Below are positions 14,449 through 35,167 of a DNA stretch of 47,935 nucleotides, one piece after another. A program made the position numbers and the translations under genes. The notes beneath the pieces were generated by a model. The model ran no database searches. It saw only the letters and a list, made by a program, of their open reading frames with translations, and was not told the origin of the DNA. This DNA comes from Candidatus Poribacteria bacterium (GTDB lineage Bacteria; Poribacteria; WGA-4E; WGA-3G). Each line of letters opens with the position of its first letter. The first letter of the stretch is position 1. The stretch lies in NCBI GenBank assembly GCA_003635305.1, contig PYJE01000120.1:5506-53440 (forward strand), given 5' to 3'.

Positions 14449-14477
14449 TTGACAATTTGCATCATTTCGGATAAAAT
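14449..14477 (+). promoter_or_regulatory. Sigma-70-like promoter TTGACA-17 bp-TAAAAT ending 7 nt before the ATG at 14485, which implies a leaderless or near-leaderless mRNA
   Basis: TTGACA is at 14449-14454 and TAAAAT at 14472-14477. There is no Shine-Dalgarno sequence between the -10 box and the ATG. Confidence 0.45.
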
Positions 14478-14484
14478 AACTAAC

Positions 14485-16398
14485 ATGGAAAGAAAAAACG
14501 TCAGCGCGCGTGCGGTGCTCATCGCACTCCTCTTTACTATCCCTAATTCCTACTGGCTCATGATTAACTGGGGTTCTTCCGGTTACAGCACAGGACAGAG
14601 TTTCCCTACTGTCTCCACGGTCTACTTTAACGTCATCTTTATTGTGCTGCTCCTGATGGGGTTCAACCCGCTCATTCGTGTTTTCCGAAAAAGCGCGTCC
14701 CTCAGCGATGGGGAATTAATGGTAGTCTATCTGCTTTTATCCATCGCCTCCTCCATCGCTGGGCACGATACACTCCAAATTTTGTGGCCTCTCCTGACGT
14801 ATCCGATCTGGTTTGCAAGTCCCGAAAATGAGTGGGGAGAAGTGTTTCAACAGCATATCCCTGAGTGGCTCTCTATCAAAGAACGGAGTGCGCTGGCGGC
14901 GTTCTACCAAGGCGACTCCACACTCCACACCGCGCAACACCTGCAACTCTGGATGACACCGGTGCTGTGGTGGAGTGCTCTCGTTATCGTGCTGACGTGC
15001 ATGATGCTCTGTATCACGCTGCTCATCCGACACCAGTGGGTAACGCACGAGAAGTTGAGTTATCCCGTTATCCAGATTCCGCTGCATCTCACCGAAAACG
15101 GCGGACGTGTGCTTTTGACAAATCGGCTGTTTCTGCTCGGTGCTGTGCTGGCAGGCGGGATGAATTTGCTCAACGGGCTTCACTTTCTTTTCCCTGTCGT
15201 GCCGGGGTTAGGCGGTAGCCTATACAATCTCGGACAGTATTTCCAGACGAAACCGCTCAACGCCATCGGCAGGCTTCCCATCGCAGTCTATCCGTTTGCG
15301 ATAGGCATGAGTTTTTTCATACCGTTGGAGCTCTCGTTTTCGATTTGGTTTTTCTATCTGTTCCATAAACTGACGCGCGTCTGGGGCACGATGGCGGGCA
15401 TTGGGCATCTGCCGGGGTTCCCGTTCCTCGATGCGCAGTCGTTCGGGGCGTGGTTCTGCCTGGGTGTTTCGGCAATCTGGCTCACTCGCAAATCCATCGC
15501 ACGGCAGTTGAAGATGGCCTTCCAAAGTTCGGCGGATGGGAACTCTGCCGAACGCGCACGCATCCGATACGCCATCATCGGGTTGATAGGAGGTAGCATT
15601 TTTATCCTCCTCTTCTTCAAAAGCACTGGCACGCCAATTTTCAGCATATTTGGCTATTTCACGCTCTTCTTCGCGTTAGCCATTGCGATTACGCGTATCC
15701 GCGCGGAAGTCGGGCCACCGGCGCACGATGTGCCCTGGAGACCTGATAAAGTGCTTGTCTCTTTCATTGGCACGCGCCGCATCGGTGCGGAGGGGTTGAC
15801 GACGTTCAGCATGTTTCACGGGTTCAACCGCTCCTATCGTTCACATCCGATGCCGATTATATTGGAGGGTTTCAAGGTTGCACAGGTGCGCGGGTTATCT
15901 CACAACCGCTTTATTACGGCTGTGATTTTGGTGACTATCGTTGGAACGATTTCCTCGGCGTGGGCATATTACGCGCAAGGATATCATTACGGCGGTGCAG
16001 TCTACGGTGAACAAGCGCAGTGCCGCTGGACTTACGAGCAGTTGAAGCAGTGGCTGATTAACCCGCAATCCATTGATGTCGGCGCGGTTTCTGCATCCGG
16101 TGGCGCGATTGCACTCACAACCCTTTTGATGATGTTGCGCCGGCGGTTTATTTGGTGGCCGTTTCACCCGGCGGGCTACGCGCTGTCGCTCAGTTTTTGG
16201 AATACGAGTTGGTATTGGTTCTCGATTTTCTTGTCTTGGGGGATAAAAGCTATTCTGTTTCAGGCGGGTGGATTGCGCACATATCGGCGCGCGATGCCGT
16301 TTTTCATCGGACTCGTCATCGGTGAATTTATTGTGGGCGCGATTTGGACGCTCCTCGGGATTGCACTGGAGCGGCCGATGTATCGGTTTATGTTCTAA
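14485..16398 (+). CDS. Large polytopic inner-membrane protein of unknown function (about 637 aa, 12 or more hydrophobic segments)
   Basis: I trimmed ORF 14449..16398 to the ATG at 14485. Hydrophobic helices run throughout. I recognise no catalytic motif. Confidence 0.7.
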   Translation: MERKNVSARAVLIALLFTIPNSYWLMINWGSSGYSTGQSFPTVSTVYFNVIFIVLLLMGFNPLIRVFRKSASLSDGELMVVYLLLSIASSIAGHDTLQILWPLLTYPIWFASPENEWGEVFQQHIPEWLSIKERSALAAFYQGDSTLHTAQHLQLWMTPVLWWSALVIVLTCMMLCITLLIRHQWVTHEKLSYPVIQIPLHLTENGGRVLLTNRLFLLGAVLAGGMNLLNGLHFLFPVVPGLGGSLYNLGQYFQTKPLNAIGRLPIAVYPFAIGMSFFIPLELSFSIWFFYLFHKLTRVWGTMAGIGHLPGFPFLDAQSFGAWFCLGVSAIWLTRKSIARQLKMAFQSSADGNSAERARIRYAIIGLIGGSIFILLFFKSTGTPIFSIFGYFTLFFALAIAITRIRAEVGPPAHDVPWRPDKVLVSFIGTRRIGAEGLTTFSMFHGFNRSYRSHPMPIILEGFKVAQVRGLSHNRFITAVILVTIVGTISSAWAYYAQGYHYGGAVYGEQAQCRWTYEQLKQWLINPQSIDVGAVSASGGAIALTTLLMMLRRRFIWWPFHPAGYALSLSFWNTSWYWFSIFLSWGIKAILFQAGGLRTYRRAMPFFIGLVIGEFIVGAIWTLLGIALERPMYRFMF

Positions 16399-16568: not shown

Positions 16569-17840
16569 CTAGATTGCGAAGGTTTTCTCATCGTCAATCA
16601 CCGCGAATTCAAACCACGTCGTGGCATCCGTGTGCCCGAGCATTTTCTTGACAAATGCCCACTCCCTTTCCGAACGCGGTCCCGCTTGCAGCAGCCGTTC
16701 GTTATGTGCGGCGATGTCTGCCGGGTCCTTCGGATAGTTCTCTCGCAACCACGCGTTGACATCGGCATCGGTAGGCAGCGTTTTGAGTGCCGCCGCGAAT
16801 GCGTCAGGCGTGAGGCCAAGGAATTCCAGTGCAATCCTGTCCATCCTAGAATCTTCGCCGTAATAGTAAAGTCCCAGCGAGTCTGAGTTCACTGCGCGCC
16901 CTTTGTCCACCATCCGTGCGACGTGAACGATGCCGCAGATATCGGTGTTCAAGGGGCTGCGCGGCGCGTGGCGTTCCAGATCGACGATGCCGAAGCTGCG
17001 TTCGTCGTCAACGTCTTGAAGCGCGACCCAGGTGGTAATCTCCGCTGGGCTCACGCCGACTTCGCGGCATCGCGATTCAAACCGTTCGCGCGTCTCATCG
17101 TTAGGCGCGTAGTTGACTAACGTGTGGTTGAACGCGTCGATTTCCGCTGCCGATTTTCCGCTGTTTTCCAGAACCCATTCGCCGAGCTCAAGGTTATTCG
17201 GGTTGTTAACGGCGGCTTCCTGAAAGTTATCGGCAGTGATGCCGAGGAACGTCAAGATGCGGACATCTTGTCCGGAGACTTCGCCGAAGAGATAGTCGCC
17301 GATTTTGCCGGCGCGTTCGGCGCGTGCCTTGTCTGCCATGCGTGCGACACCACAGATGCTGCCGACATCCTTCGCCCGCGCACTACGTGGGGGCCGCGCC
17401 TCGAGGTCTGCCTGCCAGAAGCTGCCCCAATCGTCTAATTCCATGGATTGGAGCAGCGTCTTAATATCGGTGCGCCCCGGTGCAAACCGAGCGATGCGTT
17501 GCTGCAACCGCTGTTTGTGCCCATCGGTATCCGGCATGTGAGTGAGCCGCTCTTCGTTGAACGCCGCAATCTCCGCCGCTGTCTTACCACTCGTCTCCAG
17601 CACCCAGTTGCTGAGGGCCGCATCGTCGTCGTGTTCTTTGACGGCTTCCGCGAATTCATCAGCAGAGATGCCGAGGAAGGCGAGCACGCGCTGATCCAAG
17701 CCAGATGTCTCTCCGTAGATATAGTCGCCGAGGGTTTCCTCGTTCGCGGCGCGTGCCTTATCCGTCATTCGTGCCGCGCCGACAATGCCAGCAATGCCGA
17801 GGTTCGTTGGGCGGCGTGGGGGTTGACGTGTCAAATTCAT
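16569..17840 (-). CDS. Protein made of three tandem DUF5069-like modules
   Basis: 423 aa. A ~140-aa unit repeats three times with the pattern P(R)xP...G(I/V)xxxARMxDKxRA...GxYxYGExSxxDxxxLxFLGIxxDxFxEA...WVLExSGKxAAEIxAFN. The match to DUF5069 is from memory of the family signature. Confidence 0.6.
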   Translation of the reverse strand: MNLTRQPPRRPTNLGIAGIVGAARMTDKARAANEETLGDYIYGETSGLDQRVLAFLGISADEFAEAVKEHDDDAALSNWVLETSGKTAAEIAAFNEERLTHMPDTDGHKQRLQQRIARFAPGRTDIKTLLQSMELDDWGSFWQADLEARPPRSARAKDVGSICGVARMADKARAERAGKIGDYLFGEVSGQDVRILTFLGITADNFQEAAVNNPNNLELGEWVLENSGKSAAEIDAFNHTLVNYAPNDETRERFESRCREVGVSPAEITTWVALQDVDDERSFGIVDLERHAPRSPLNTDICGIVHVARMVDKGRAVNSDSLGLYYYGEDSRMDRIALEFLGLTPDAFAAALKTLPTDADVNAWLRENYPKDPADIAAHNERLLQAGPRSEREWAFVKKMLGHTDATTWFEFAVIDDEKTFAI

Positions 17841-19124: not shown

Positions 19125-19250
19125 CACCAAACTCCCGGCTGTAGGTGGAGAGCCCCTGTAGTTCTGGCATACGGACAAACGAGTTTGACCTGTTCGGATT
19201 CGGGCATTCCCGAACGACTCAGATTCATTCGGGATAATCACGGACAAACT

Positions 19251-20855
19251 ATGGAACGCAACACCCTCTATTACGGCGATTGCCTTGAAGTCATGCGCCC
19301 CTGGCACGACAACTCCATTGACATCATCTGTCTCGATCCGCCGTTTAACTCCAATGAACGCTACAGTTCGCCTTTTAAAAAGAGCGGGTTGAACATTGAC
19401 GCACAAATCAAGGCGTTTGACGATATGTGGCGGTGGGATGAAGCCGCCGCTGAACGCGTCGCCCGACTCACATCGGCACTTGCGAATCCGATTTCTCCTG
19501 TCATCGCGGGGTTTGAGTTGTTTATTCCAAACAGCAAGATGCTCGCCTATACCAGTTATATGGCGGAGCGGTTGATGGAGATGCATCGCCTACTGAAGCC
19601 AACCGGTGCTATTTACCTCCACTGCGATGCGACTGCATCGCATTATCTCAAACTCCTGATGGATGTTATCTTTGGCGAGGCAAACTTCAGGAATGAGATT
19701 ATCTGGCACCGCACCGGCGGTGGTGGAAAAGGAAGTCAGCACAAACCGAAGAAATTCGGGGCAAGCACTGATACTATCTTCTTTTACGCGATGCCCAAAC
19801 ACGAATTTAACGGCAGTTATGAACCAGACCCGGATGCCGAGAGACGCTACCCGAAAGTTGACGAACAAGGGAGACGTTTTGCCTTAACCTCACTTTGGTG
19901 TCGCCCCGCCCACGATGCGCGGCCGAATCTCTGTTACGAATGGCGGGGGTATAAGAACCCATATCCGAGCGGTTGGATGACAACGAAGGAAAACGTTGAA
20001 CGACTTTTCCAAGAAGGGCGCGTCTATTTTAGCAAAACGGGGACACCCTACCGGATTCGCTACATAGAAGAAGACAAGGGGAAACAGGTTGATAACCTGT
20101 GGGCAGATATTTCTCCTTGCCGCGGTAAAGAATTCCTCGGCTACCCGACGCAGAAACCGCTGGCACTGTTGGAGCGCATCATCAAAGCCTCTTCCAAACC
20201 CGGAGAACTCGTCCTCGATCCTTTTTGTGGCTGCGGTACCACCATTGAAGCCGCACGCACTCTCGGCCGCGATGTCATCGGCATTGACGTGTTGCCCAGC
20301 GCGTTAGATATTATCAACACCGAACGCCTCACGCAGAACAAAGGCATCGCACCCCTGAAAATCACCGGCACCCCCACAGACCTGGCGAGTGCAAAACGCC
20401 TTGCCCTGGAGAGTCGCTATAAGTTCCAAGACTGGGCGATTTCGCTCATCAAAGGCTTCGCATCCAATGCCAAGAAATCCGGCGATGGCGGCATCGATGG
20501 ATTCGGCTTGCTGACGCACGCCCCGGACAATTTCGCCTCGCGCGCCATTGTCATTCAGGTGAAGAGTGGGCGCGTTGGCCCAAACGATGTTCCGAGTTTC
20601 ATTTATACGATGGACAAGGTGAACGCGGCGATGGGTATATTCATCACGATGACACCGCATCGTTCACCGAAGGATCTGCGCGAAGCGGCATCGCTTACAC
20701 CACTCCACATGGGGGTGAGTGCCTATCCACGGTTGCAGTTTTTCTCGGTGGCGGAGTATTATGAAAACAGCGCGCAACTGCAGCTGCCGGCGTTGTCTAA
20801 CCCGTGGACAGGGAAACCGATGCAGGGCTCATTGTTTGATAAATTAGGTAAGTGA
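19251..20855 (+). CDS. Beta-class N4/N6 DNA methyltransferase fused to a C-terminal Mrr-like (PD-(D/E)xK) restriction-endonuclease domain
   Basis: I trimmed ORF 19185..20855 to the ATG at 19251. Motif IV is DIICLDPPFNSN near the N-terminus. Motif I is LVLDPFCGCGTTIEAARTLGRDVIGID later in the sequence. The order IV before I indicates the beta class. The C-terminal ~150 aa contain GDGGIDGFGLL...IVIQVKSG, typical of the Mrr catalytic domain. Confidence 0.8.
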   Translation: MERNTLYYGDCLEVMRPWHDNSIDIICLDPPFNSNERYSSPFKKSGLNIDAQIKAFDDMWRWDEAAAERVARLTSALANPISPVIAGFELFIPNSKMLAYTSYMAERLMEMHRLLKPTGAIYLHCDATASHYLKLLMDVIFGEANFRNEIIWHRTGGGGKGSQHKPKKFGASTDTIFFYAMPKHEFNGSYEPDPDAERRYPKVDEQGRRFALTSLWCRPAHDARPNLCYEWRGYKNPYPSGWMTTKENVERLFQEGRVYFSKTGTPYRIRYIEEDKGKQVDNLWADISPCRGKEFLGYPTQKPLALLERIIKASSKPGELVLDPFCGCGTTIEAARTLGRDVIGIDVLPSALDIINTERLTQNKGIAPLKITGTPTDLASAKRLALESRYKFQDWAISLIKGFASNAKKSGDGGIDGFGLLTHAPDNFASRAIVIQVKSGRVGPNDVPSFIYTMDKVNAAMGIFITMTPHRSPKDLREAASLTPLHMGVSAYPRLQFFSVAEYYENSAQLQLPALSNPWTGKPMQGSLFDKLGK

Positions 20856-21044: not shown

Positions 21045-22697
21045 ATGCGCAAACTTGTTCTCATCATTTCCATACTCGGCGTGCTGCTGTCGGTGCTTTT
21101 AAGCGGCATCTATTTTCATTTCTCCTATTTTGAGCCGGACACCGTCTCCTATCTGTTTCAGGCGAAGTTATTCGCGGAAGGGAAACTTTCGGTGCCGGCA
21201 CCGCCGGAACACGGCTTCTCGTCATCGCCGCACATTAACATTCTGAACGGCAAGTGGTATTCAAAATATCCGTTTGGCAATGCGCTGATGTTGACATTCG
21301 GCGTGCTGATAAACGCGCCGTGGCTGATTCCCGCGCTGGCGACAGGAGGCGCGTTGTTTTTGTTGTATCTCCTTGTGAGAGAGATGGACGGGAACTCAGT
21401 TGCACTTATCGCCGTGGTGCTCGGGCTCATCTCGCCTGCAACGCTAGGGATGGGCGCGACGTGGTTTAGTGAGCCGGTGAGCCGTTTTTTCCTCGCGCTT
21501 TATCTGTTTGCGTTGATTAAGACGTTGAACGGAGTGCGCCTATCGGGGTTTAAAACCGGTATTGGATATCCGCTGTTGTCGGGGTTTGCTTTGGGATACG
21601 CGTTTAATACGCGGCCTCTCTCGGCGGTGGTGTTCGGCGTGGTGGGAGCAGGGCTGGCACTCTATCAACTTGTAAAAGCGCGCACGGAAGCACAAAGATT
21701 TCGCCCTTTAATCACACGACTCGGCGTTTTCCTGATGCCCTTTTTCATCATGGTAGGTGTGTGCATGGCGTGGAATGCGCATTTCACCGGCGACGCGTTC
21801 ATGTTTACGCACACCGTGGCGCAACCGAGCGACAAAATCGGGTTCGGCAAGCGGACGGAAGGGTATGAACCGAACCTTGAAAACGCTTTCAATTTCACGC
21901 CAGCATGGGCAATTGAGCGGACATGGAAACACATCCTGCCGTGCATCAGTTTCAACGCGCTCGGTTGGGGTGGGTATCACCACCGGTTGCTGACAGGCGA
22001 ATCGGGATACTCATTCTTCGGTTTCATTATCGCGTTCGTGCCGTTGCTGTTCCCGTGGTGTCTCGCGTTGCTGCCCTTCTTCAGCAACGGGAAAAGACGT
22101 TCCGATTTTACAGAAGAAAGGATATTGCGTAACCGATACAATTGGCTCTGTCTCGCGCTCATCGTTGGGAACCTGTTGCTTTACGCCTTCTTCTATTTTG
22201 AGGGTTCAACGTGGGGTTTCACGCCTGTCAATGCGCGCTATTACACCGAAACCACACTGCTCGCCTTCATTCCGTTGGTGGCGCGCGGGATGTTCATCGT
22301 CTACGAAAACATCAGACAGAGGAAGCCGCTGATTGTCGCGGCGAGTGTCGTGCTTATCTTGCTTAGCGTCAACACGGTGTGGAGTTATGTCCGCATCGGG
22401 CGCGTGTATCAGAATTGGAGTCCTGTCTATCAAAAACTGCCGCCGATGGTAGCCGAACGCGACATCCACAACGCCGTTATTTTCGTTGCAGAACACCGCG
22501 GCGCGCCAATCGGTGACTATCCGTTTCAGAACCTGCAAGAGGCGGACATCGTCTATTTTAAACTGGGGCCCGCCCCTCGCTGGAAGTTGACGAACAGCGA
22601 TTGGCAGCAGGTTTACGCGCAGTATTTCACGGGCAGGGCGGCGTATCTGTATGTGCAGCGTGAAAACAGCCTCACGCGTTTATCGCCGGATTTGTAA
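21045..22697 (+). CDS. Polytopic membrane protein, probably a GT39/ArnT-like (GT-C fold) glycosyltransferase
   Basis: 550 aa with many TM helices. The N-terminal segment HFSYFEPDTVSYLFQAKLFAEG, followed by multiple helices and a soluble C-terminal domain, resembles PMT/ArnT-type enzymes. The assignment is tentative. Confidence 0.5.
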   Translation: MRKLVLIISILGVLLSVLLSGIYFHFSYFEPDTVSYLFQAKLFAEGKLSVPAPPEHGFSSSPHINILNGKWYSKYPFGNALMLTFGVLINAPWLIPALATGGALFLLYLLVREMDGNSVALIAVVLGLISPATLGMGATWFSEPVSRFFLALYLFALIKTLNGVRLSGFKTGIGYPLLSGFALGYAFNTRPLSAVVFGVVGAGLALYQLVKARTEAQRFRPLITRLGVFLMPFFIMVGVCMAWNAHFTGDAFMFTHTVAQPSDKIGFGKRTEGYEPNLENAFNFTPAWAIERTWKHILPCISFNALGWGGYHHRLLTGESGYSFFGFIIAFVPLLFPWCLALLPFFSNGKRRSDFTEERILRNRYNWLCLALIVGNLLLYAFFYFEGSTWGFTPVNARYYTETTLLAFIPLVARGMFIVYENIRQRKPLIVAASVVLILLSVNTVWSYVRIGRVYQNWSPVYQKLPPMVAERDIHNAVIFVAEHRGAPIGDYPFQNLQEADIVYFKLGPAPRWKLTNSDWQQVYAQYFTGRAAYLYVQRENSLTRLSPDL

Positions 22698-22745
22698 CAG
22701 AGTCACCAAAGGTTCATTAGGAGCTAACAAAGGAAGGAGAACCTG

Positions 22746-24002
22746 ATGCACACGAAACGATTCGTCTATATCTTTATCGGGGTGCTCGTCTTAACTTTAG
22801 GGACTTACACGTTTTGGCGCGTTGCCCAAAACCCACCTTCAGTCGTTCAGAAGGTGTTTCGGACGACGCACCCGAGCGATTCAACTAACGGGAGCCCGAC
22901 ACAAGCACCACATAGCTCAGAAGAGCCGGAACTAACAGAAGAAGCGACTTCTTGGCATGCGGAGAGTATTGCGTTTACGAAATCGCTTTTTTCTCAGGAG
23001 CAACTCGCAAAGCCAGATGCACAGCGCATTTTCAAACTCCTTGAATCTGAGGAGTACCAAAGTTTTACTGCAACTCCCCGTACCTTGGAGGAGCGATTTG
23101 AGTTTCTCGCTGACCGCGGTGCAGACGTGCCCCGTAATCTGAACATGCTGTTATTCCGTAAATCGTTTCCGACCGGGGAACCGGCGGATTTTGAACCGGA
23201 GATGCGGCAGAAATTGTTGCACGCGCTTCAAGAGGCAGGCATCGGAGGACCAGAAGAAGTGCCAGCCGAGATTCTCGCGCTTCGCGCCAACCCCAACTTG
23301 ATGACAAAACTCACTCAGGCGGCGGCACTCTTAGAGGAATACGGACAGAAAGAGGGGCTCCAGCGGCTCTATGCGTCGGAGCCGGCTTTGGCACGCGGGG
23401 TTGAGTGGGGATTGCAGCAAGAACAAGCACATGAAAAGAAGCGGGCTGTCCTTCGGACGTTTTGGGACAATAAGCGACATTTTCATTGGCGAATGGGCTA
23501 CTTCAAGGGACACGTTACCGGGGAAGAGGGTTCCAGCGCGTGGGTTAATGAAGTGTTAGCAGGTTTAAGTCCCGCCGCGCCAGCGGTACCGATGTTTGTT
23601 GACTCCACGGAGGGCTTGTCTCCACCCAAAAGCGATCGACAAGTTGAAACCGTCCTTCCTGATATTCCGACTACGCCGCAGGAAAAACAGCATCCGCCAA
23701 GCAGCGACATGCCAACTGTGCAGAAAGTGGCCCCCCGGCCAACAAGCCCCACGGCGACACCGAATCAGGACAAACGCTTGACACCCCTCACGCCGATGAC
23801 TTCCAAATCGTCCCAATTGCCTACCGATGACGATTTTGAAACAGTTCTTCGCGAACGCTTTTCATCAACGCGGTTCAATCGAGCCATGGAGGCATTGAAT
23901 CGCTACGGGCCTGAAGAAGGGGTTCGCCGTCTCAAAGCGTCAGACCCGGAAATGGCGGTGCAGGTGGAACGCCTCCTCCAGAAACAGCAGGAGAAAGATT
24001 AA
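22746..24002 (+). CDS. Hypothetical membrane-anchored protein with an internal repeat and a Pro/Thr-rich linker
   Basis: A good RBS (GGAAGGAGAA) precedes the start and there is an N-terminal TM helix. LEEYGQKEGLQRLYASEPALARGVEWGLQQEQ is repeated as LNRYGPEEGVRRLKASDPEMAVQVERLLQKQQ. Confidence 0.65.
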   Translation: MHTKRFVYIFIGVLVLTLGTYTFWRVAQNPPSVVQKVFRTTHPSDSTNGSPTQAPHSSEEPELTEEATSWHAESIAFTKSLFSQEQLAKPDAQRIFKLLESEEYQSFTATPRTLEERFEFLADRGADVPRNLNMLLFRKSFPTGEPADFEPEMRQKLLHALQEAGIGGPEEVPAEILALRANPNLMTKLTQAAALLEEYGQKEGLQRLYASEPALARGVEWGLQQEQAHEKKRAVLRTFWDNKRHFHWRMGYFKGHVTGEEGSSAWVNEVLAGLSPAAPAVPMFVDSTEGLSPPKSDRQVETVLPDIPTTPQEKQHPPSSDMPTVQKVAPRPTSPTATPNQDKRLTPLTPMTSKSSQLPTDDDFETVLRERFSSTRFNRAMEALNRYGPEEGVRRLKASDPEMAVQVERLLQKQQEKD

Positions 24003-24563: not shown

Positions 24564-25667
24564 CTACTGCACCTGCTCCAAAATGACAATATCCCCCGGA
24601 TTCCACGATTGCGCGATGATATAGAACCTGCCATCAATCTGCCGAAGGACAGCACCGTGCAGATGCTGAAACGTCTCCACGCCGAGCTCCTCCTTCGGCA
24701 TGATGGTTGAGACGAGGTTATTACCTTCCAAAATATAGAGCGGCGCGCCCTTGTTTCTATCTGGGCCGTAGAGGCACGCAACGACAGCATACCCCTCTTC
24801 ATAATCAATACTACACGGAAAAGAACCTTTGATGAGAGGCAGCGTCTCCAGATATGTTCCATCAGGAGAATAGCGTTCAACTTCCGCATTCGCCCGGTCT
24901 GCAATATCCAACCGATTTGTGCCAGCAGGCACTGTGATGTGGTGTCCTGTTCCGAATTGCCCCGGTTCATCGCCTTTTCCGCCGAATGCCAACGGATGCC
25001 ACGCCGCCGCAAACGGCTCAAGACTCGTAATCTTCGCACCCAAAATGTAGTCCAATTTCGAGTAGCCGGTAGTGACGTAAAGCATGCCGTTGATATGCGT
25101 CACGCCTGTCGGCACGAACTGGCCACCTTCACTGAAATAGGTGTTTACTACTTGCCCCTGAAAATCGGTTAGCGCGTCGGGTGCTTCTAGCGTGTGGACG
25201 AGTTCGCCGTCTAGCGTCGTTGTCCACACTTTTCCGACATCGTTCGCCGGAAACGAGAGGTAAGGCGTGCCATCGGTGGCTGTCCAGACGGTGGTATAGT
25301 GCGCATTCGCCGCTTTCAGTGCCGGTGGCGTTTCAATGAGGCGTGTCGTCTTCAAATCCGCGCTGATTTGGATAATGCCGACATCGGGCAGAGCGAAGTA
25401 AGTTTCGCCTCTACCGGGCCGCCTGTCTACGTCAAACCCGCCGTGCGCTTTGTCAATTGCGGCGACGACTTCGGGAGGGAAGTGAGCGCGGGTGTGAAGC
25501 ACTCTGAACTTCAGCGCGCCTTGTCCGCTGACTTTATCTGCCGCGATTTCGTCGCGCGCGGTGAATAGGAAAGTCGGTTTCATTGCCGGGTGTCCGTCCA
25601 CGTGCACGGCAATGTTTCCAAGGGTAATCATGCTGAAGAGGAGCGTGAAAAGCGTTAAATGTTTCAT
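24564..25667 (-). CDS. Secreted beta-propeller protein (NHL-repeat-like)
   Basis: The start is preceded by the RBS AAGGAG. The signal peptide is MKHLTLFTLLFSMITLG. An NHL-like unit GQFGTGHHITVPAGTNRLDIADRANAEVERYSPDGTYL is present. The gene lies 13 nt downstream of the isomerase gene on the same strand. Confidence 0.6.
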   Translation of the reverse strand: MKHLTLFTLLFSMITLGNIAVHVDGHPAMKPTFLFTARDEIAADKVSGQGALKFRVLHTRAHFPPEVVAAIDKAHGGFDVDRRPGRGETYFALPDVGIIQISADLKTTRLIETPPALKAANAHYTTVWTATDGTPYLSFPANDVGKVWTTTLDGELVHTLEAPDALTDFQGQVVNTYFSEGGQFVPTGVTHINGMLYVTTGYSKLDYILGAKITSLEPFAAAWHPLAFGGKGDEPGQFGTGHHITVPAGTNRLDIADRANAEVERYSPDGTYLETLPLIKGSFPCSIDYEEGYAVVACLYGPDRNKGAPLYILEGNNLVSTIMPKEELGVETFQHLHGAVLRQIDGRFYIIAQSWNPGDIVILEQVQ

Positions 25668-27423: not shown

Positions 27424-28626
27424 GTGGATTGGACACACAACCTCACCGCCGCAATGCTCGCGCTTTGTCTCATCGGCCTGCTGTTCGCACCAGTGGAAAC
27501 GGATGCGTTCATTGAACGGGAATATACCATTCGCGAAGTCCTTGATGCTTGCACTAACATCGTCTTCGGCGAAGTCAAAAGCGTTGACAAACGCCGCCTG
27601 AGAGGTGTCGTCACCGTGCGGGAAGATGTCAAAGGCGAATGCGGCATGAAGGAAATTAATATGAACTTCGCCACTGGACACTACAAACGCGGCACTTCGC
27701 CGGAGAAACTGGCGAATATCCTTAAACCTGGAATGCCTATCATCGTCTTCTACCGCCAACATTATGGCATCGACAGCATGTGTTTTGTTGATAACACGTG
27801 GTTTCAAATGCGTGGCTATACCACCAGTAGACGGACTACCGGTTCGTGGTGGAGTTTTACGCACATCGATGCGATGATGTCGCGCACGTTTGATGGGAAA
27901 ACGAAGGCGTTCCAAAAAATTGTGCGGGAGATGCTCGCCGGGAAAATGTGGGTAGGCGCGCCCGAAAACGCCGTGAAACTTCTCGTCCTTACCGGCAATA
28001 GCACGCACCCGACGTGGAGCCAGGTCCAAGTCTACACCAACACGGCGACGTATGAGTATCAAGCACTCCGCGCAACAAAAGAAGCCGGGAAACGTCCCAT
28101 ATTCTACGAATCTACGCAAGACAGAAAACTCGCCAACCTCAACGAAGCGGATATTCTGTGGGTGGGATACGAGGAAATCTCCAGTTACGGACGCTACCTC
28201 CTCTCGCCGGAAACGGAGAAGAAAATCCGAGACTTCGTGAAGAAAGGCGGCATTGTTATCGTCACTGGGCAAGACAGCAGCGAGGCGAACCCTTGCGGCA
28301 CCGGATGGCTACAGGGCAAACTGAAAGGCGTAGAAAGCCCACCGACGCAACACTTCGCCGTGACAGAAAAAGGGAATTCGCTCTTCTCCACACCGAACAA
28401 GATTGAATCCGGCACAATCTTTATTGATGACGCATGGAAGGAGTGGAATCGGCGCGACGAAATCCTGGCGACGACACCGGATGGGAACGAACTCGTTGTC
28501 GGCGCGCGCAAGCACGGCAAGGGACTCTATATCATCACCAGCCTCCGCAACGATAGTCAGTATACGACGACGATGAACAAGGCATTGATGGCGAACCTGC
28601 TGCATTACGCGGTGGGACGGTTGTAG
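27424..28626 (+). CDS. Secreted hypothetical protein with a C-terminal GATase1-like (ThuA/DUF4159-like) module
   Basis: The GTG start follows AGGAGG. The signal-like N-terminus is LTAAMLALCLIGLLFAPVETDA. The segment ADILWVGYEEI...KKIRDFVKKGGIVIVTGQD resembles class-I amidotransferase-fold proteins. The assignment is tentative. Confidence 0.6.
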   Translation: MDWTHNLTAAMLALCLIGLLFAPVETDAFIEREYTIREVLDACTNIVFGEVKSVDKRRLRGVVTVREDVKGECGMKEINMNFATGHYKRGTSPEKLANILKPGMPIIVFYRQHYGIDSMCFVDNTWFQMRGYTTSRRTTGSWWSFTHIDAMMSRTFDGKTKAFQKIVREMLAGKMWVGAPENAVKLLVLTGNSTHPTWSQVQVYTNTATYEYQALRATKEAGKRPIFYESTQDRKLANLNEADILWVGYEEISSYGRYLLSPETEKKIRDFVKKGGIVIVTGQDSSEANPCGTGWLQGKLKGVESPPTQHFAVTEKGNSLFSTPNKIESGTIFIDDAWKEWNRRDEILATTPDGNELVVGARKHGKGLYIITSLRNDSQYTTTMNKALMANLLHYAVGRL

Positions 28627-28833: not shown

Positions 28834-30021
28834 CTACCGGAACTTCGCGATAATTAAGGTAATATCATCGTTCGCCGCGGCACCACGCTGATGCGCCTCG
28901 AGGTCTGCCAGCACGGCCTGCTTGATTTCAGCAGCCGATAGGTGCTGCATTTCAGATAACAAGGTTTTGAAGCGTTCTACCCCATACATTTCAGAGGCTG
29001 CGTTAAACGCCTCGGTGATGCCATCGGAGTAAAGGACGAGCAAATCGCCCGGATGCCACGCGAGCTCCGTGCTATAGTAGTTAGTCTCTGAATCCAACAG
29101 GAACCTGGCGGTGCCAACAGGCGTAAAGGCCGATTTCAATTCAAGCGGTTCCGTCTTCTGTTCGGCCCGGAAGAGGAGCATCGCCGGATGGCCGGCGTTG
29201 GCGAACTCCAACCGATTATCCGGATGAACAATGACGTAACAGCAGGTCTGGTAGATAAACGCCTGCGCGTCTTCCTCTACGACGCGGTTGACAGCCTTCA
29301 TAACTTCCGGCACGGAGGCATCAAAGCGGATTTGGGTTTGCAAACAACTCTTAGTCATCGCCGCCACCATCGCTGAGTGGTAACCGTGCCCCATCACATC
29401 GCCGAGGAAGAGTGCTACGCGGTTGTTCGGCAGATAGAGATAATCGTAATAGTCGCCGCCGACGCTATTCGTCGGTTTGCAATAGCCGGCGGCGTTTAAA
29501 CACGACGTAGCCATTTCTTCGTTAGGCAGAATGGATTGCTGCACCTCCGCGGCGAGTCGCATCGATTCTTCTTGTGCAATCTCCTTGCGGATAGCATCCA
29601 TTTGAATTTCCAGGTCGCGCCGGATTTTGTCGTTCAGCACCCGAAACATACCGATACCGATGCGCGGCTCCCGTCTCATCGCCTGCAAGAAATCGTGCCG
29701 GGTAATCTGTAGGCACTGGGTTGGGATTACCGTTTTGACGGTGGCACTCCGCGGCTGGTTATCAATCAGGGCTATTTCGCCGATGCAATACCCAGTTTCA
29801 TCGAAGGACAGCACCTCGGTTTCTGCCTTGATGATGCTGACTTCGCCGCTGATGAGTAGATAGAGTGAATCGCCCTGTTCGCCTTCTTCAAACAGCGTTT
29901 CTTCGGCGGCGTAAGTTACTTCGCGGGCGATATCGCAGATTAACTTTAATTCTGTCTGGGGGAGTGCTGAAAACAGCGCGGTCTCCCGCAAAAACCTGAG
30001 TTTATCTTCTTCGGTTAGCAT
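28834..30021 (-). CDS. Cyclic-nucleotide-binding domain fused to a PP2C/SpoIIE-type serine phosphatase
   Basis: The N-terminal segment FSALPQTELKLICDIAREVTYAAEETLFEEGEQGDSLYLLISGEV...IGEIALI is a cNMP-binding fold. The C-terminal segment GGDYYDYLYL...LFLGDVMGHG...VLYSDGITEA is the SpoIIE/PP2C signature. Confidence 0.8.
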   Translation of the reverse strand: MLTEEDKLRFLRETALFSALPQTELKLICDIAREVTYAAEETLFEEGEQGDSLYLLISGEVSIIKAETEVLSFDETGYCIGEIALIDNQPRSATVKTVIPTQCLQITRHDFLQAMRREPRIGIGMFRVLNDKIRRDLEIQMDAIRKEIAQEESMRLAAEVQQSILPNEEMATSCLNAAGYCKPTNSVGGDYYDYLYLPNNRVALFLGDVMGHGYHSAMVAAMTKSCLQTQIRFDASVPEVMKAVNRVVEEDAQAFIYQTCCYVIVHPDNRLEFANAGHPAMLLFRAEQKTEPLELKSAFTPVGTARFLLDSETNYYSTELAWHPGDLLVLYSDGITEAFNAASEMYGVERFKTLLSEMQHLSAAEIKQAVLADLEAHQRGAAANDDITLIIAKFR

Positions 30022-30137
30022 CGTCCATTCAGTCCTCTTGACTTTTTAGAGAGAATTCGTTAACATTCTTGCAAAAAACGCAGGCACAACATGTCATGTC
30101 GTATCACCGTTATGCATGATAACACGAAAAGGAAATT

Positions 30138-33100
30138 ATGTCAATAGCCGATTTTTTTCGCGGGAAGGTTCTATTCATTACGGGCGGCACCGCCTTCCTC
30201 GGACAGCCGATGGTTGCCAAAATTCTGACCGGGCTTCCCGACATCCATAAAATGTATCTGCTCATCCGGAGCCGCACCGATGCTAGAGGAAAACGCATCA
30301 ATGCGCAAGAACGGTTAGAAAACGAACTGTTAACCTCCGATGTGTTCACTGCACTCCGCCAACACCACGGCGGAAATTTTGACAAGTGGGCGAAGCAGAA
30401 GTTGTGCGCCGTTGAAGGCGAACTCACGCACGAACGCCTCGGCCTCAGCGATGAAGAATACCAACGGCTGCAGGACGAAGTGCAACTTTTCATTAACATC
30501 GCCGGTGTTGTTCAATTCGATCCGCCGTTTGACGAATCGTTGAAGGGCAACGCATTAGCAGCCAAGCACGTCGTCACCTTCGCGAAGGGGTGTCAGAACG
30601 CTGTCTTCCTGCACGTCTCAACGGCGTATGTCTGCGGTGACACCCCGGGCCGAGTACCGGAAGAACTCCCGCTGCCTTATGAAATCTACGCCGAGCAGCA
30701 TCAGGCGAAGACTGGCGTTGCCATCCCGCAGACTCTCTCGGCGGAAGTTGAGGCACTGCTGAGTCTGAGCGATGCAATCCACGCCGAGGCAGACTCACCG
30801 GAACGCCTCGCGCAGTTTCAACGGGAGGCGGAGCAGCATAAACGGGGCAGCCGCAAGGCACTGGAAGCGCAAGTCAAGGAGGCGCGAACCGAATGGCTTG
30901 AGGCACAATTGGTAGAGGCAGGGTTGAAGCACGCACGCTCGCGCGGGTGGAACGATACCTACACCTACATGAAATTCCTCGCCGAACAGATGGTGATGGA
31001 ATTGCGAGGCGAACTGCCCACGGCGATTATCCGGCCTTCCATTATTGAGAGCAGCCTCGCGGAACCGGTGCCGGGATGGCTCGGCAAGTTTCGGATGTCG
31101 GAACCGCTGATTGTCGGTTTTGCAAAGGGCCGTTTACCTGATTTTCCGGCAGACCCCGGGATTATCCTCGATATTATTCCGGTTGATTTTGTTGTGAACG
31201 CCATGTTGGCGGCTGCCGAAGCCACGGCGCGGAACGGCGGCATTGCGGTATATCACGTCGCCACTGGCACACAAAACCCGCTCTATTTCCGCGGCATCGT
31301 TGACGCAACCTACGACTATTTTGTCGAAAACCCGATGCTGGAAAACGGCAAACCGATTCAAGTGCCGGTCTGGCAGTATCCTAGTTTAGAGGAATTCCAG
31401 CGGAAATTGGACAGCAGGATGCGGATGCTTGACAAGGCAATTCAGGCACTCGCTCGGTTACCGCTACGCGCCGCAAAACGCCGCCGTCGTCGACTTGTCG
31501 TGAAGCAGAGCAGTATCAAGGCACTCCTCCACTACATCCGCATTTACGCGCCTTACACCCGCACCAACTTTGAATTCGAGACGCGTAAGACGCAAGGACT
31601 GTGGGAGGCACTCTCCCCGGACGAGAGGCAACGCTTTAACTTTGATGTCTCGCAGATTCATTGGAAGCAGTATTTCCATGACATCCACATTCCCGGTATC
31701 AAACGGCACGTGCTGAAGTTGGAAGAACCAACCGCAGGCGAATCCGCCTCGGCGAGGCAGCGTCAATCGGATTCCGATGATGAAGCGGAAGCATCGGCTG
31801 AAGCAGTCAGCGCGCCCGCCCAATCGCGAGTAGCACCTGACAACTGTCAGGACAGATGTCCTTCCAATCCGCCCGATGTCGAAAACCCCATCGACCGGAT
31901 TTCGCCGAAGACCATCGTCGATTTGGTTGAGATACAAGCAAAGCGCATTCCCCACAACATCGCGCTGCAGATGGTAAGCGATGGGGAGTGGCAGCAGTAT
32001 ACCTACGCGGAAACCTACGAACGTTCACGTCAAGTGGCGTTTCAATTGTGGGAAAGCGGACTCCGCAAAGGGGCCCGGGTCTTGCTTGTTTCGGAGAACC
32101 AGCCGGAGTGGTGCATCGCCTATCTCGCCGCTGTCCAGCTCGGTGCGGCAGTAGTCCCGCTTGACGCGCAAACGCCGGTATCCGAAGTGTTAGCCATCGC
32201 CGAATTCACCGAAGCCACATCCATTTTGGTATCCGCTAGCGTCTTGGCGAAGTGCAGTGAAGCGTTGGCCTCGGCAAAACCTCAGGTGCAGAATATCAAC
32301 GAGATGACAGCGACATCGGAGATTCCTGCCGATTTTCCGAAGGTGGAGATTACGCCGGATACCGTCGCTTCGATTATCTTTACGATGGGTACGACGGTGG
32401 ACGCGAAAGGCGCGATGTTAACGCACGGGGGGTTTATTTGTAATGTGCGCGCCGTTGCAAAGGCACTGCCGCCGAGGGATAACGAACGCATTCTATCCGC
32501 GCTGCCGCTGTATCATGCCTTGAGTTTCTCGTGCAGTTTGTTGATGGCACTTTACAGCGGCACCACGGCGATTTACGTCAACGCGCTCCGTCCTACCACG
32601 CTCCTCAAGACGATGCGAGAAGCGAGAATTACCGCCTTTATCGGTGTGCCGCGACTTTTTCAGATGCTCCAAAGCACCATCAAACGGCAAGCATCGCGAG
32701 CCGAAACGCCGGGGCAAACTTTGGCTGAGAAGGCACTTGCCGTTATGGGAGGGGAGATTCGTGTGCTTGTCAGCGGTGGTGCTTCTCTCTCCGACGCTGT
32801 CTACGATGGATTTCAGGCGTTTGGACTCACCCTCTACCAAGGCTATGGCATGACAGAAACTGCGCCGGTCCTCAGCGTCAATCCGTATTTGAAAAGCAAA
32901 CGTGGCTCTGTCGGCCCGGCGGTGGAAGGCGTGGAGTTGCACATCCACAATCCTGACAGCGACGGCATCGGTGAAATCATTGCCAAGGGCCCCAGCACGA
33001 TGAAGGCTTACTACCGAAACCCGAATGCCTCCGCGAAGGCTATTCGCGAGGGATGGCTCTACACGGGAGACCTCGGGTTCATGGATGCGGATGGGTATCT

Positions 33101-34478
33101 CTATATTACCGGGCATTGCAAGGATATTATCGTCCCCGCCTCCGGCAAAAATGTGTATCCGGTGGAATTGGAGGCACTTTATCGGCATCATCCGGCGATT
33201 TCGGAGATGTGCGTCGTCGGCATCCCTTATGAAGATAAGAGCGATACCGCCATCCACGCCGTGATTGTGCCTACAGATACCGCCACGCCACCGGCAAGCA
33301 CGGCTTCAAACGGCGCGCTCGGCGAGGCAATCCAACACCACCTTCAGGCGCGCGCCAAACAGGTGCCGAGTTATCAGCAATTCCACAAAACGCATCTGTG
33401 GGAAGAGGCACTGCCGAAGACTGCCGATGGCACTCTGGATAGGCAGCGCGTCAAAGTGATGCTTCAGGCGCATCTGGCGCACGTGGAAAGCGCGTCTGTA
33501 GATGATGAACTTGAACCTTCATCGGCTATTCCAGAAGAAATTCTAACGTCCCTCGCGCGATTGGCTCGGATGGAAACAAACCAGATTCGCCCAGAAAGCC
33601 GTTTAGACACCGCTCTTGGGCTTGACTCGCTCATGCGGTTGGATCTGTTGCTTCTCCTTGAAGCGCGCCTCGGCCACACCATTCCCGATGCGATGCTCGC
33701 CAATTTACAGACAGTCGGGGATGTCGTTGAGTTAACGCAGACGTTCCAAGCGTCGGATGCTGAAGATAGAGATGCATCTCACGAGCCGAGGCCGGCTGTC
33801 AATATTCGGGATGTGCCGCGGTGGTATGCGCGCGCCTTCCGTTCTGTCGTGCGGAGCATCTATAAGCACTATTTCTCGCTGGAGTGCCACGGGTTGGAGC
33901 ATATCCCGCAGGGGAAGCCCTATATCATCACACCGAATCACACAAGTCACTTGGATACGCTCGCTGTGATAACCGCTCTCGGGCCGAAGGCGTATCAACT
34001 CTGGACGCTTGCTGCGCGCGATTATTGGTTCGCCAACCGTCTGCAAGGCTGGTTCGCGCGCAACTGCCTCAACGCCTTGCCGATCGAACGTGAAGGGAAC
34101 TTCGCTGAGTTCCTCCAAGATTTGCGCGTAGCAAACGAAGTGATGGCGCAAAACAACGGTTTGCTCGTCTTCCCCGAAGGCACCCGTTCGCTTGATGGCC
34201 AACTTCAGCCGTTCAAACAGGGTATCCTCAGTTTGCTCATTTATGCACCCGACGTGCCGATTATCCCTGCGTATATTGAAGGCACTTATCACGCGCTGCC
34301 GAAAGGGAAAAATCTCCCGAAAAAGCATCCTGTCCGGATAGTGTTCGGCGAGCCGGTGACTTTTGATATGCGTGCCGGCGAGCCGCATGGAGACGCGGAT
34401 AGATACCAACATTTTCTCGCACAGGCGCAAAGCCGCGTCGCCGCACTTGGCGCAACCTTAACCAAGGACGGTGCATAA
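30138..34478 (+). CDS. 1446-aa four-module lipid enzyme: fatty acyl-CoA/ACP reductase (NAD_binding_4 + Sterile domains), AMP-dependent acyl ligase, acyl carrier protein domain, and PlsC-type acyltransferase
   Basis: FAR module: GKVLFITGGTAFLG, FLHVSTAYV, YTYMKFLAE, IIRPSIIESS...PGWL, then a Sterile-like C-terminal region to about aa 530. An acidic, Ser/Ala-rich linker follows. Ligase module (about aa 590-1105): TMGTTVDAKGAMLTH, YQGYGMTE, WLYTGDLG, GKNVYP. ACP module: LGLDSLMRLDL with Ser1164 (nt 33627-33629). PlsC module: NHTSHLD (His1268) and FPEGTRS. Confidence 0.85.
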   Translation: MSIADFFRGKVLFITGGTAFLGQPMVAKILTGLPDIHKMYLLIRSRTDARGKRINAQERLENELLTSDVFTALRQHHGGNFDKWAKQKLCAVEGELTHERLGLSDEEYQRLQDEVQLFINIAGVVQFDPPFDESLKGNALAAKHVVTFAKGCQNAVFLHVSTAYVCGDTPGRVPEELPLPYEIYAEQHQAKTGVAIPQTLSAEVEALLSLSDAIHAEADSPERLAQFQREAEQHKRGSRKALEAQVKEARTEWLEAQLVEAGLKHARSRGWNDTYTYMKFLAEQMVMELRGELPTAIIRPSIIESSLAEPVPGWLGKFRMSEPLIVGFAKGRLPDFPADPGIILDIIPVDFVVNAMLAAAEATARNGGIAVYHVATGTQNPLYFRGIVDATYDYFVENPMLENGKPIQVPVWQYPSLEEFQRKLDSRMRMLDKAIQALARLPLRAAKRRRRRLVVKQSSIKALLHYIRIYAPYTRTNFEFETRKTQGLWEALSPDERQRFNFDVSQIHWKQYFHDIHIPGIKRHVLKLEEPTAGESASARQRQSDSDDEAEASAEAVSAPAQSRVAPDNCQDRCPSNPPDVENPIDRISPKTIVDLVEIQAKRIPHNIALQMVSDGEWQQYTYAETYERSRQVAFQLWESGLRKGARVLLVSENQPEWCIAYLAAVQLGAAVVPLDAQTPVSEVLAIAEFTEATSILVSASVLAKCSEALASAKPQVQNINEMTATSEIPADFPKVEITPDTVASIIFTMGTTVDAKGAMLTHGGFICNVRAVAKALPPRDNERILSALPLYHALSFSCSLLMALYSGTTAIYVNALRPTTLLKTMREARITAFIGVPRLFQMLQSTIKRQASRAETPGQTLAEKALAVMGGEIRVLVSGGASLSDAVYDGFQAFGLTLYQGYGMTETAPVLSVNPYLKSKRGSVGPAVEGVELHIHNPDSDGIGEIIAKGPSTMKAYYRNPNASAKAIREGWLYTGDLGFMDADGYLYITGHCKDIIVPASGKNVYPVELEALYRHHPAISEMCVVGIPYEDKSDTAIHAVIVPTDTATPPASTASNGALGEAIQHHLQARAKQVPSYQQFHKTHLWEEALPKTADGTLDRQRVKVMLQAHLAHVESASVDDELEPSSAIPEEILTSLARLARMETNQIRPESRLDTALGLDSLMRLDLLLLLEARLGHTIPDAMLANLQTVGDVVELTQTFQASDAEDRDASHEPRPAVNIRDVPRWYARAFRSVVRSIYKHYFSLECHGLEHIPQGKPYIITPNHTSHLDTLAVITALGPKAYQLWTLAARDYWFANRLQGWFARNCLNALPIEREGNFAEFLQDLRVANEVMAQNNGLLVFPEGTRSLDGQLQPFKQGILSLLIYAPDVPIIPAYIEGTYHALPKGKNLPKKHPVRIVFGEPVTFDMRAGEPHGDADRYQHFLAQAQSRVAALGATLTKDGA

Positions 34479-35167
34479 TGGCATCGAAAACACCGATGGC
34501 ATCCGATACTGTAGCGTTCTTTGACGTAGATGGCACGCTTTTGGATTCCACAATTGTGCATTACTACCTCTGGTTGCGCACGGCAAAACTTCCGTTCTTT
34601 TTGAAACCGTTGTGGTTGGCAGCGTTCCTCCCCAAAGTCGTTTATTACCTGATTTTGGACCGGAGGAGCAGAACGCGGTTCAACCAGGTCTTCTATCGGA
34701 ACTACCGCGGTATGGACGCGGAAAGCGTAAAGGCGTTGTCGCAGGAAATGTTTGAGGACTCCCTGCGCGCCAAAATCTTTCCAGCTGCCATATCGCAAAT
34801 TCAGGAACACAAGGCGCAAGGCGCGACTGTTGTCCTCGTGACAGGCTCGCTGGACTTCATTATGCAACCGCTTGCCGAATTCTTCGCCGTTGACTACGTC
34901 TTAGCACCGCGTCTCCGCGAAGAAGCCGGGCGATTCACGGGCGAACTCACCACGCCGCCGCTCATCGGTGAAGAGAAGGCGAAAGCGATGAAAGCCTTCG
35001 CCGAAGGACACGGCATCGCGTTAGAGAATTGCTACGCCTACAGCGATAGTCAATCCGATCTGCCGATGTTAGAATGCGTCGGCAATCCCGTGGCAGTGAA
35101 CCCGGGAAAATCCCTCCGTAAGAAAGCACTCGCCTCCGGTTGGGAAATGTATGAATGGGTGCTATAA
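34478..35167 (+). CDS. HAD-IB family hydrolase (phosphoserine-phosphatase-like)
   Basis: The start overlaps the upstream stop (TAATG). Motif I is FFDVDGTLLDS, motif II is VVLVTGS, and motif IV is YAYSDSQSDLPML. Confidence 0.8.
   Translation: MASKTPMASDTVAFFDVDGTLLDSTIVHYYLWLRTAKLPFFLKPLWLAAFLPKVVYYLILDRRSRTRFNQVFYRNYRGMDAESVKALSQEMFEDSLRAKIFPAAISQIQEHKAQGATVVLVTGSLDFIMQPLAEFFAVDYVLAPRLREEAGRFTGELTTPPLIGEEKAKAMKAFAEGHGIALENCYAYSDSQSDLPMLECVGNPVAVNPGKSLRKKALASGWEMYEWVL

Follow-up and report, generated by a model that had tools for sequence, protein, structure and literature searches.

The closest described system to the one considered here is the elbABCDE operon of Myxococcus xanthus (MXAN_1531 to MXAN_1527; MIBiG BGC0000871), whose product ElbD carries an N-terminal FAR1-like fatty acyl-CoA reductase (FAR) domain followed by acyl-CoA synthetase (ACS), acyl carrier protein (ACP), and AGPAT-like acyltransferase domains (PMC9131029). 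In M. xanthus, neither alkyl nor alkenyl ether lipids are formed once elbD is deleted, and ATP-dependent acyl activation together with self-loading of the ACP has been shown in vitro for the enzyme (PMC9131029; PMC13012113). The presence of the i15:0 aldehyde in this organism likewise depends on elbD (PMC9131029). Here, we analyze an elbD homologue of a sponge-symbiont phylum, encoded in a stretch of 47,935 nucleotides from Candidatus Poribacteria (contig PYJE01000120.1, positions 5,506 to 53,440, assembly GCA_003635305.1; hereafter, the window), together with the elbB homologue that follows it. The two genes probably constitute the poribacterial version of the elb ether-lipid system in the form of a two-gene operon, an assignment that draws on the domain architecture, the end-to-end collinearity with ElbD, the 38% identity of the partner to ElbB, the adjacency of elbD and elbB, the conservation of domains and motifs, and the genetics of M. 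xanthus.

According to PMC9426513 and bioRxiv 10.64898/2026.06.23.733905, Lorenzen et al. 2014 had already noted an elbD homologue in Poribacteria. Widespread elbD clusters resembling nonribosomal peptide synthetases (NRPS-like), with the order FAR, ligase, ACP, and AGPAT, were reported in sponge Poribacteria and Acidobacteriota (Loureiro 2022, mSystems, PMC9426513), and a preprint catalogued 92 elbD clusters, among them poribacterial gene-cluster families (GCFs 5-10) “harbouring only elbD and elbB homologs” and an elbD variant with a break between its reductase and adenylation parts (Re|A) (Loureiro 2026, bioRxiv 10.64898/2026.06.23.733905). Since the family, its poribacterial occurrence, and the elbD+elbB core all stand in the literature, the locus is already known as a prediction, and its function remains a prediction. 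What the present analysis adds is the absence of elbC and elbE within ±8 kb of elbD in 80 genomes and a ligase domain that is non-canonical yet conserved. An earlier note on this DNA had overlooked both the prior publication of poribacterial elbD and the translationally coupled elbB.

The elbD homologue occupies a single unbroken open reading frame (ORF) of 1446 aa in the ORF listing, starting with an ATG that is preceded, 7 nt upstream, by AGGA as ribosome-binding site. The earlier note had read four modules in this one chain, and the profile scan bears this inventory out, with the FAR (NAD_binding_4 plus Sterile), the ligase, the ACP, and the acyltransferase all detected and every named domain exceeding its curated Pfam cut-off. 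The features of the two genes are as follows:

30138..34478, forward strand: elbD homologue with FAR, acyl ligase, ACP, and AGPAT on one chain (ORF, Pfam, collinearity with Corallococcus ElbD)
30177..31205, forward strand: FAR NAD(P)H-binding reductase domain, NAD_binding_4, residues 14-356 (Pfam E 1.2e-58)
31482..31718, forward strand: Sterile (PF03015), the FAR C-terminal domain, residues 449-527 (Pfam E 1.1e-16, 61.2 bits, cut-off 35.4)
31719..31928, forward strand: FAR-ligase linker, acidic, Ser/Ala-rich, and poorly conserved, residues 528-597 (alignment conservation)
31929..33461, forward strand: adenylate-forming acyl ligase, AMP-binding at residues 598-959 plus a C-terminal subdomain at ~996-1108 (Pfam E 3.9e-72)
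33537..33731, forward strand: acyl carrier domain, PP-binding, residues 1134-1198 (Pfam E 2.1e-9)
33879..34277, forward strand: PlsC/AGPAT-type acyltransferase (PF01553), residues 1248-1380 (Pfam E 1.8e-23)
34478..35167, forward strand: elbB homologue, a 229-aa HAD-IB phosphohydrolase (TIGR01490, Pfam HAD, similarity to ElbB)

The motifs quoted in the earlier note were all recovered in place. In the FAR, the motif search located the Rossmann motif GGTAFLG at residues 16-22 and the catalytic YTYMK at 275-279, both of which are kept in the Poribacteria alignment and across the wider ElbD family. The phosphopantetheine site, Ser1164 of DSL, lies within LGLDSL (1160-1165), and this serine was constant in all motif variants listed for the Poribacteria alignment. 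The acyltransferase carries HTSHLD at 1268-1273 (HX4D, H1268..D1273) and FPEGTR at 1345-1350, its nearest solved relative being the PlsC of T. maritima (5kym, E 1.6e-14). The catalytic motifs of the ACP and the acyltransferase were conserved in Poribacteria and in the wider family alike. Within the ligase, AMP-binding_C was detected at residues 1010-1098, and the solved structures matching the ligase comprise fatty-acyl-, feruloyl-, malonyl-, and 4-coumarate-CoA ligases.

The comparison with myxobacteria was made through the orthologues of Corallococcus interemptor (L162) and Myxococcus dinghuensis (L205), taken as stand-ins for the ElbD of M. xanthus DK1622 (ABF88003.1); the loci of Corallococcus spp. 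and M. dinghuensis were retrieved with a degenerate nucleotide pattern modelled on the canonical form of the A10 motif in the ligase. In C. interemptor, a 1476-aa ElbD (L162:1630-6057) lies between elbC, a Lar_N gene, and elbE, a NAD-epimerase gene, and in M. dinghuensis the gene order is elbA, elbB (HAD), elbC, elbD. As an observation in its own right, ElbC, whose function is unknown according to the literature, carries a Lar_N domain (PF09861, lactate racemase N-terminal) with E 2e-35 (L162:23-1633, L205:1409-3172). The Pfam order of Corallococcus ElbD is NAD_binding_4, Sterile, AMP-binding, PP-binding, and Acyltransferase, and the window protein aligned collinearly with it from residue 1 to ~1425 at 31% identity (592 bits, E 0; BLASTP). 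By virtue of this identical order and of the end-to-end alignment, the window protein is an ordinary ElbD in its architecture.

This alignment sustains the kinship with Myxococcus ElbD and ether lipids that the earlier note had proposed, and at the same time overturns its claim of a permuted domain order. The corresponding explanation, that of a new megasynthase set apart from ElbD by a reductase moved to the N-terminus, has nothing in its favor beyond the statement of that note, whereas the FAR is N-terminal in M. xanthus ElbD (PMC9131029), the same order is listed for the sponge symbionts (PMC9426513), and the collinear Corallococcus protein shares it. We consider this explanation already refuted and assign it next to no probability. 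The order given in the earlier note (ligase, ACP, reductase) is found instead in carboxylic acid reductases and in reductases of the NRPS-like kind, and we presume that it was misattributed to ElbD.

The closest solved relative of the FAR was the fatty acyl-CoA reductase 7eoz, which matched over the whole FAR, including both subdomains (E 9e-81). The alignment falls into two blocks (residues 2-176 and 256-540), with the Sterile part aligning to the C-terminal part of 7eoz. To judge from its sequence, the FAR thus belongs to the eukaryote-type, alcohol-forming class with a Sterile domain, in line with the reading of the earlier note. Relative to the plant-type 7eoz, the Rossmann domain also contains a charged insertion of ~80 aa (residues ~177-255; 30666-30902), which may be specific to the family, since Corallococcus ElbD aligns across this stretch.

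A FAR of this type would also suit a eukaryote-like division of labor, in which ElbD supplies fatty alcohol through its FAR and acyl-dihydroxyacetone phosphate (acyl-DHAP) through its ligase, ACP, and acyltransferase, the ether bond being made by a separate alkylglycerone-phosphate synthase (AGPS) encoded elsewhere. Such a pathway would resemble that of animal FAR1, GNPAT, and AGPS, or the FAR-GNPAT fusions that exist in M. xanthus (MXAN_1675) and in ciliates (Tetrahymena FARAT) (PMC9131029; PMC13012113), and agps matches have been found in some metagenome-assembled genomes (MAGs) that also carry elbD matches, Poribacteria among them (bioRxiv 10.64898/2026.06.23.733905). In M. xanthus, however, ElbD provides the major route, the deletion of the AGPS homologue MXAN_1676 causing a minor loss only (PMC9131029), which argues that the type enzyme is not AGPS-dependent. 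Furthermore, no AGPS gene was present in the 48-kb window, no AGPS-type family was found among the window ORFs scanned with Pfam, and the division would leave the tightly linked ElbB without a role. Taken together, we hold a dependence on AGPS to be unlikely.

The tight linkage concerns a gene whose ATG overlaps the stop codon of elbD (ATGA). Its product scored 158.8 bits with TIGR01490 (cut-off 98.3) and E 1.5e-42 with Pfam HAD, bears the DxDxT nucleophile motif as FFDVDGTL at residues 14-21, and aligned with Myxococcus dinghuensis ElbB at 38% identity over 217 aa (E 3e-51). Across the 80 Poribacteria loci collected in the genome search described below, elbB lies directly downstream of elbD in 79, the exception being a contig that ends ~100 nt past elbD. 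Among the loci of other phyla with enough flanking sequence, elbB adjoins elbD in 43 of 47 and elbC does so in 44 of 47, the usual order being elbB-elbC-elbD.

The best 80 genome matches to elbD were full-length, ranged from 50-87% identity, and all came from MAGs or single-cell genomes of Candidatus Poribacteria; 75 of these 80 loci contain the same full-length ORF. In the protein database, searched as 90%-identity clusters and considering the best 120 clusters listed, more than 120 proteins of 1411-1512 aa matched with 70-99% identity and a query coverage of at least 97%, and showed the same Pfam set; a protein on a Poribacteria WGA-3G contig (L024) is 72% identical to that of the window. 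This recurrence of full-length homologues in Poribacteria genomes and protein clusters indicates that elbD is a conserved feature of the sponge-symbiont phylum and not an assembly artefact. When residues 1-1200 were used as query against 50%-identity cluster representatives, more than 50 further representatives of the same architecture were retrieved (1350-1700 aa, 28-58% identity), and the phyla holding loci of this wider family were Acidobacteriota, Planctomycetota, Verrucomicrobiota, Binatota (“delta proteobacterium”/Binatus), Myxococcota, and Actinomycetota.

Within the Poribacteria alignment, the mean identity to the window protein was 72-79% for the FAR subdomains, the AMP-binding core, the ACP, and the acyltransferase (FAR, 73%; acyltransferase, 79%) and 66% for the C-terminal subdomain of the ligase, with the linkers at 30-42%. 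The FAR-ligase linker (residues 528-597) had a mean identity of 40% and a single invariant column out of 70, and was mostly gapped against Corallococcus ElbD. These values suggest that every domain is under similar purifying selection.

In five Poribacteria genomes (L006, L021, L023, L025, and L059), elbD is divided into a FAR gene and a ligase-ACP-acyltransferase gene, matching the Re|A split variant of bioRxiv 10.64898/2026.06.23.733905. At the junction in L006, L021, L023, and L025, the FAR part stops at TAG, with GGAGG lying over its last codons and an ATG following 3 nt later in the same frame (consensus GGAGG(A/C)G TAG GNT ATG; L006:9620-9770, with stops at ~9677-9686), and in L059 the spacer measures ~115 nt (L059:1579-1694). 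The split point falls exactly within the poorly conserved FAR-ligase linker, and these loci, judged by their junction sequences, are genuine two-gene versions with translational coupling. A fusion or split by sequencing error, the latter being an artefact that the earlier note had flagged as a threat to its reading, was rejected, given the intact ORF of the window, the 75 relatives of the same length, and the stop, Shine-Dalgarno sequence, and ATG, with no frameshift, in the five split relatives.

Under the assignment to the elb system, a sequence of steps can be proposed by homology. The ligase would activate a long-chain fatty acid, probably of C14-C18 and possibly methyl-branched, and load it as a thioester onto the phosphopantetheine at Ser1164 of its own ACP. 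The FAR would then reduce the ACP- or CoA-bound acyl group to an aldehyde, and probably to an alcohol, in an NAD(P)H-dependent manner. The AGPAT domain, as its HX4D and FPEGTR motifs suggest, would acylate an acceptor of the glycerol-phosphate type (glycerol 3-phosphate [G3P], DHAP, or 1-alkyl-G3P). The reduced chain would become ether-linked at sn-1 of glycerol phosphate independently of AGPS, and ElbB, with its intact HAD-IB motif and tight gene linkage, would dephosphorylate a pathway intermediate. As product, one would expect a membrane lipid of the symbiont that is built on 1-O-alkyl-glycerol (monoalkyl glycerol ether). Monoalkyl glycerol ethers of C14-C18 are present in the host sponges, iso-, anteiso-, and methyl-branched forms among them (bioRxiv 10.64898/2026.06.23.733905).

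Several observations weigh against this proposal. The FAR and AGPAT activities could not be demonstrated even for M. xanthus ElbD (PMC9131029). Poribacteria have never been demonstrated to synthesize ether lipids (bioRxiv 10.64898/2026.06.23.733905), and no lipid has ever been assigned to this phylum. Pontiella, a member of Verrucomicrobia, possesses elbD homologues, and no ether lipids were detected in its cultures (PMC11868695). Neither elbC nor elbE gave a tblastn match (E<=1e-5), whether in the window or in the ±8 kb around elbD of the 80 Poribacteria loci, the rest of each genome lying outside this search, and Pfam scans of most window ORFs of at least 150 aa revealed neither the Lar_N family of elbC nor the NAD epimerase/dehydratase family of elbE; inactivation of elbE lowers ether lipids in M. 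xanthus. Their absence near elbD agrees with the “only elbD and elbB homologs” of bioRxiv 10.64898/2026.06.23.733905. Finally, the ligase is devoid of the A10 lysine and bears atypical A3 and A8 motifs, and the loading of the ACP may therefore not run as in the Myxococcus enzyme.

Some of these observations could also be accommodated by a product other than an ether lipid, either through recycling or remodelling of acyl groups in the manner of Aas (free fatty acid to ACP to lysophospholipid) or through fatty alcohols or aldehydes destined for wax-like storage or signalling. The Pontiella cultures are the principal point in its favor, along with purified M. xanthus ElbD, which gave neither acyltransferase nor alcohol-forming activity, and the match of the ligase to the Aas model NF006386 (E 1.8e-57). 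This match, however, is limited to the generic ligase region and reaches 195 bits against a cut-off of 1221. The sole genetic data for the ElbD family point to ether lipids (PMC9131029; PMC13012113), and the host sponges are rich in monoalkyl glycerol ethers of bacterial type. The wax or alkyl ester that the earlier note had entertained as a product found no specific support. Known wax-ester enzymes are of the WS/DGAT kind and not PlsC-type acyltransferases, which counts against such a product. Overall, a non-ether product seems to us quite improbable, and the synthesis of an alkyl glycerol ether remains the favored function of the locus.

The ligase motifs deserve a closer description. In the window protein, A5 (GYGMTE) and A7 (TGD) are intact, whereas A3 reads FTMGTTVDAKG (32379-32411), A8 reads GHCKD (33111-33125), and A10 reads PKTADGT, with Thr1099 (33432-33434) at the canonical lysine position; in the alignment with 4-coumarate-CoA ligase 2 (4CL2, 5bsm), this threonine stands opposite the lysine of “pkspsgkilr”. 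Throughout Poribacteria, the A3 P-loop follows the pattern FTMGTTV[DE][AP][KR]G as opposed to the canonical TSGTTGxPKG, and A8 is mostly GHCKD in place of GRxKD. Among the motif variants listed for the Poribacteria alignment of 81 sequences, none has a lysine at the A10 position, the residues found there being variable. The Myxococcota-type subfamily, in contrast, retains FTSGTTGxPKG and LPRTxTRKVKR, and intermediate relatives grade between both states.

In enzymes of the ANL superfamily, the adenylation half-reaction normally requires the lysine of A10, and atypical P-loops are tolerated in active fatty acyl-AMP ligases. The AMP-binding core is conserved among Poribacteria at 76% mean identity to the window protein, with 107 of 362 columns invariant. 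Being as conserved as the FAR and the acyltransferase, it suggests a functional ligase domain, although one that may not adenylate in the textbook way, and a decaying domain was rejected on the same grounds. We accordingly record the non-canonical A3, A8, and A10 motifs as an unusual trait of the domain and not as evidence of inactivity. One speculative extension, which we rate as possible but doubtful, is that the poribacterial-type ElbD represents a functionally distinct branch, characterized by the loss of the A10 lysine, atypical A3 and A8 motifs, strong purifying selection, and the company of ElbB alone without ElbC or ElbE. Should this be true and should Poribacteria use this enzyme to produce alkyl glycerol ethers, two genes would be enough for an ether bond to form independently of AGPS, and the carrier may be loaded non-canonically, for instance by means of another catalytic residue or directly from acyl-CoA or acyl-ACP.

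As a discovery, the locus adds little, and its interest lies in the unsolved chemistry of ElbD, in the minimal elbD-elbB form, and in the atypical ligase motifs. Sponges are unusually rich in alkyl glycerol ethers whose producers are unknown, and the formation of an ether bond by ElbD without AGPS is equally unsolved. Reduced to elbD and elbB, which occur together in 79 of 80 genomes, the poribacterial locus represents the smallest form of the system in nature and is for this reason a convenient one for heterologous expression.

Upstream, elbD is separated from a divergently oriented gene by the following region:

30022..30137, no strand: divergent intergenic region of 116 bp between elbD and the upstream gene for a cyclic-nucleotide-binding and PP2C protein (consensus scan and sequence)

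Sigma-70-like hexamers occur on both of its strands, as found by a consensus scan that carries no evidence of function. The divergent gene (28834-30021, reverse strand) encodes a cyclic-nucleotide-binding domain fused to a SpoIIE/PP2C phosphatase, and this gene and an unannotated 400-aa ORF (27424-28626) keep their position by elbD in 54 of the 80 Poribacteria loci. The conserved neighbor could reflect plain synteny or could be a regulator. A larger biosynthetic cluster in the window was rejected, since the neighboring genes have nothing to do with lipid synthesis (tetratricopeptide repeat [TPR], ThuA, and enolase-superfamily proteins, Nuo subunits, ABC transporter components, a DNA methylase, and leucine-rich repeat [LRR] proteins).

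Farther away in the window, LRR were found together with dockerin, cohesin, and FlgD-Ig domains in two large proteins on the reverse strand (1349 aa, 6309-10358; 802 aa, 11569-13977), possible members of the repeat-protein classes that have been reported from symbionts of sponges. A DNA methylase (N6_N4_Mtase; 19185-20855, forward strand) shares its chain with an Mrr-type restriction endonuclease domain, and the three ORFs after it (21045-24002 and 24564-25667) gave no Pfam match. A protein with DUF6785 and DUF6784 (E 1e-139; 14449-16398, forward strand) adjoins one with three DUF5069 repeats (16569-17840, reverse strand).

Set beside the known systems, the locus is closest to the elb operons. 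The M. xanthus system shares the same four domains in the same order, the lengths being 1446 aa in the window and 1476 aa in Corallococcus, and the FAR, ACP, and acyltransferase motifs as well as the ElbB HAD-IB partner are common to both sides. It differs in that elbA, elbC, and elbE are not near elbD in the window, in that elbB lies upstream of elbD in the Myxococcus system and downstream in Poribacteria, and in the ligase motifs, where Corallococcus ElbD has FTSGTTGTPKG at A3 and PRTSTRK at A10 against FTMGTTVDAKG and PKTADGT in the window, and where A8 is GRxKD in the canonical subfamily against GHCKD. Genetic and lipid evidence comes from the M. xanthus operon.

Other multidomain enzymes resemble the window protein in part. 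The FAR-GNPAT fusions (M. xanthus MXAN_1675 and Tetrahymena TtFARAT) have in common with it an N-terminal FAR, a C-terminal acyltransferase of the glycerol-phosphate type, and a role in the supply of ether-lipid precursors, but they contain neither ligase nor ACP and use a separate AGPS; in the window protein, ~600 residues with AMP-binding and PP-binding domains stand between the FAR and the acyltransferase, and an identity with this type of fusion was rejected. Carboxylic acid reductases and NRPS-like A-T-R enzymes likewise combine adenylation and carrier domains with an NAD_binding_4-type reductase. Their reductase is C-terminal, however, and they possess no Sterile domain and no acyltransferase, whereas the window protein has its reductase at the N-terminus and an acyltransferase at the C-terminus, and the NCBIfam carboxyl_red model matched weakly (152 bits against a cut-off of 1300); this identity was also discarded. 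Aas resembles the window protein in that its acyl ligase is fused to an acyltransferase of the PlsC type, and differs in having the acyltransferase first, a free ACP, and no reductase. The published elbD clusters of sponge symbionts (PMC9426513; bioRxiv 10.64898/2026.06.23.733905), finally, come from the same phylum and share both the core architecture and the minimal elbD+elbB arrangement, with nothing substantive setting the present locus apart from them.

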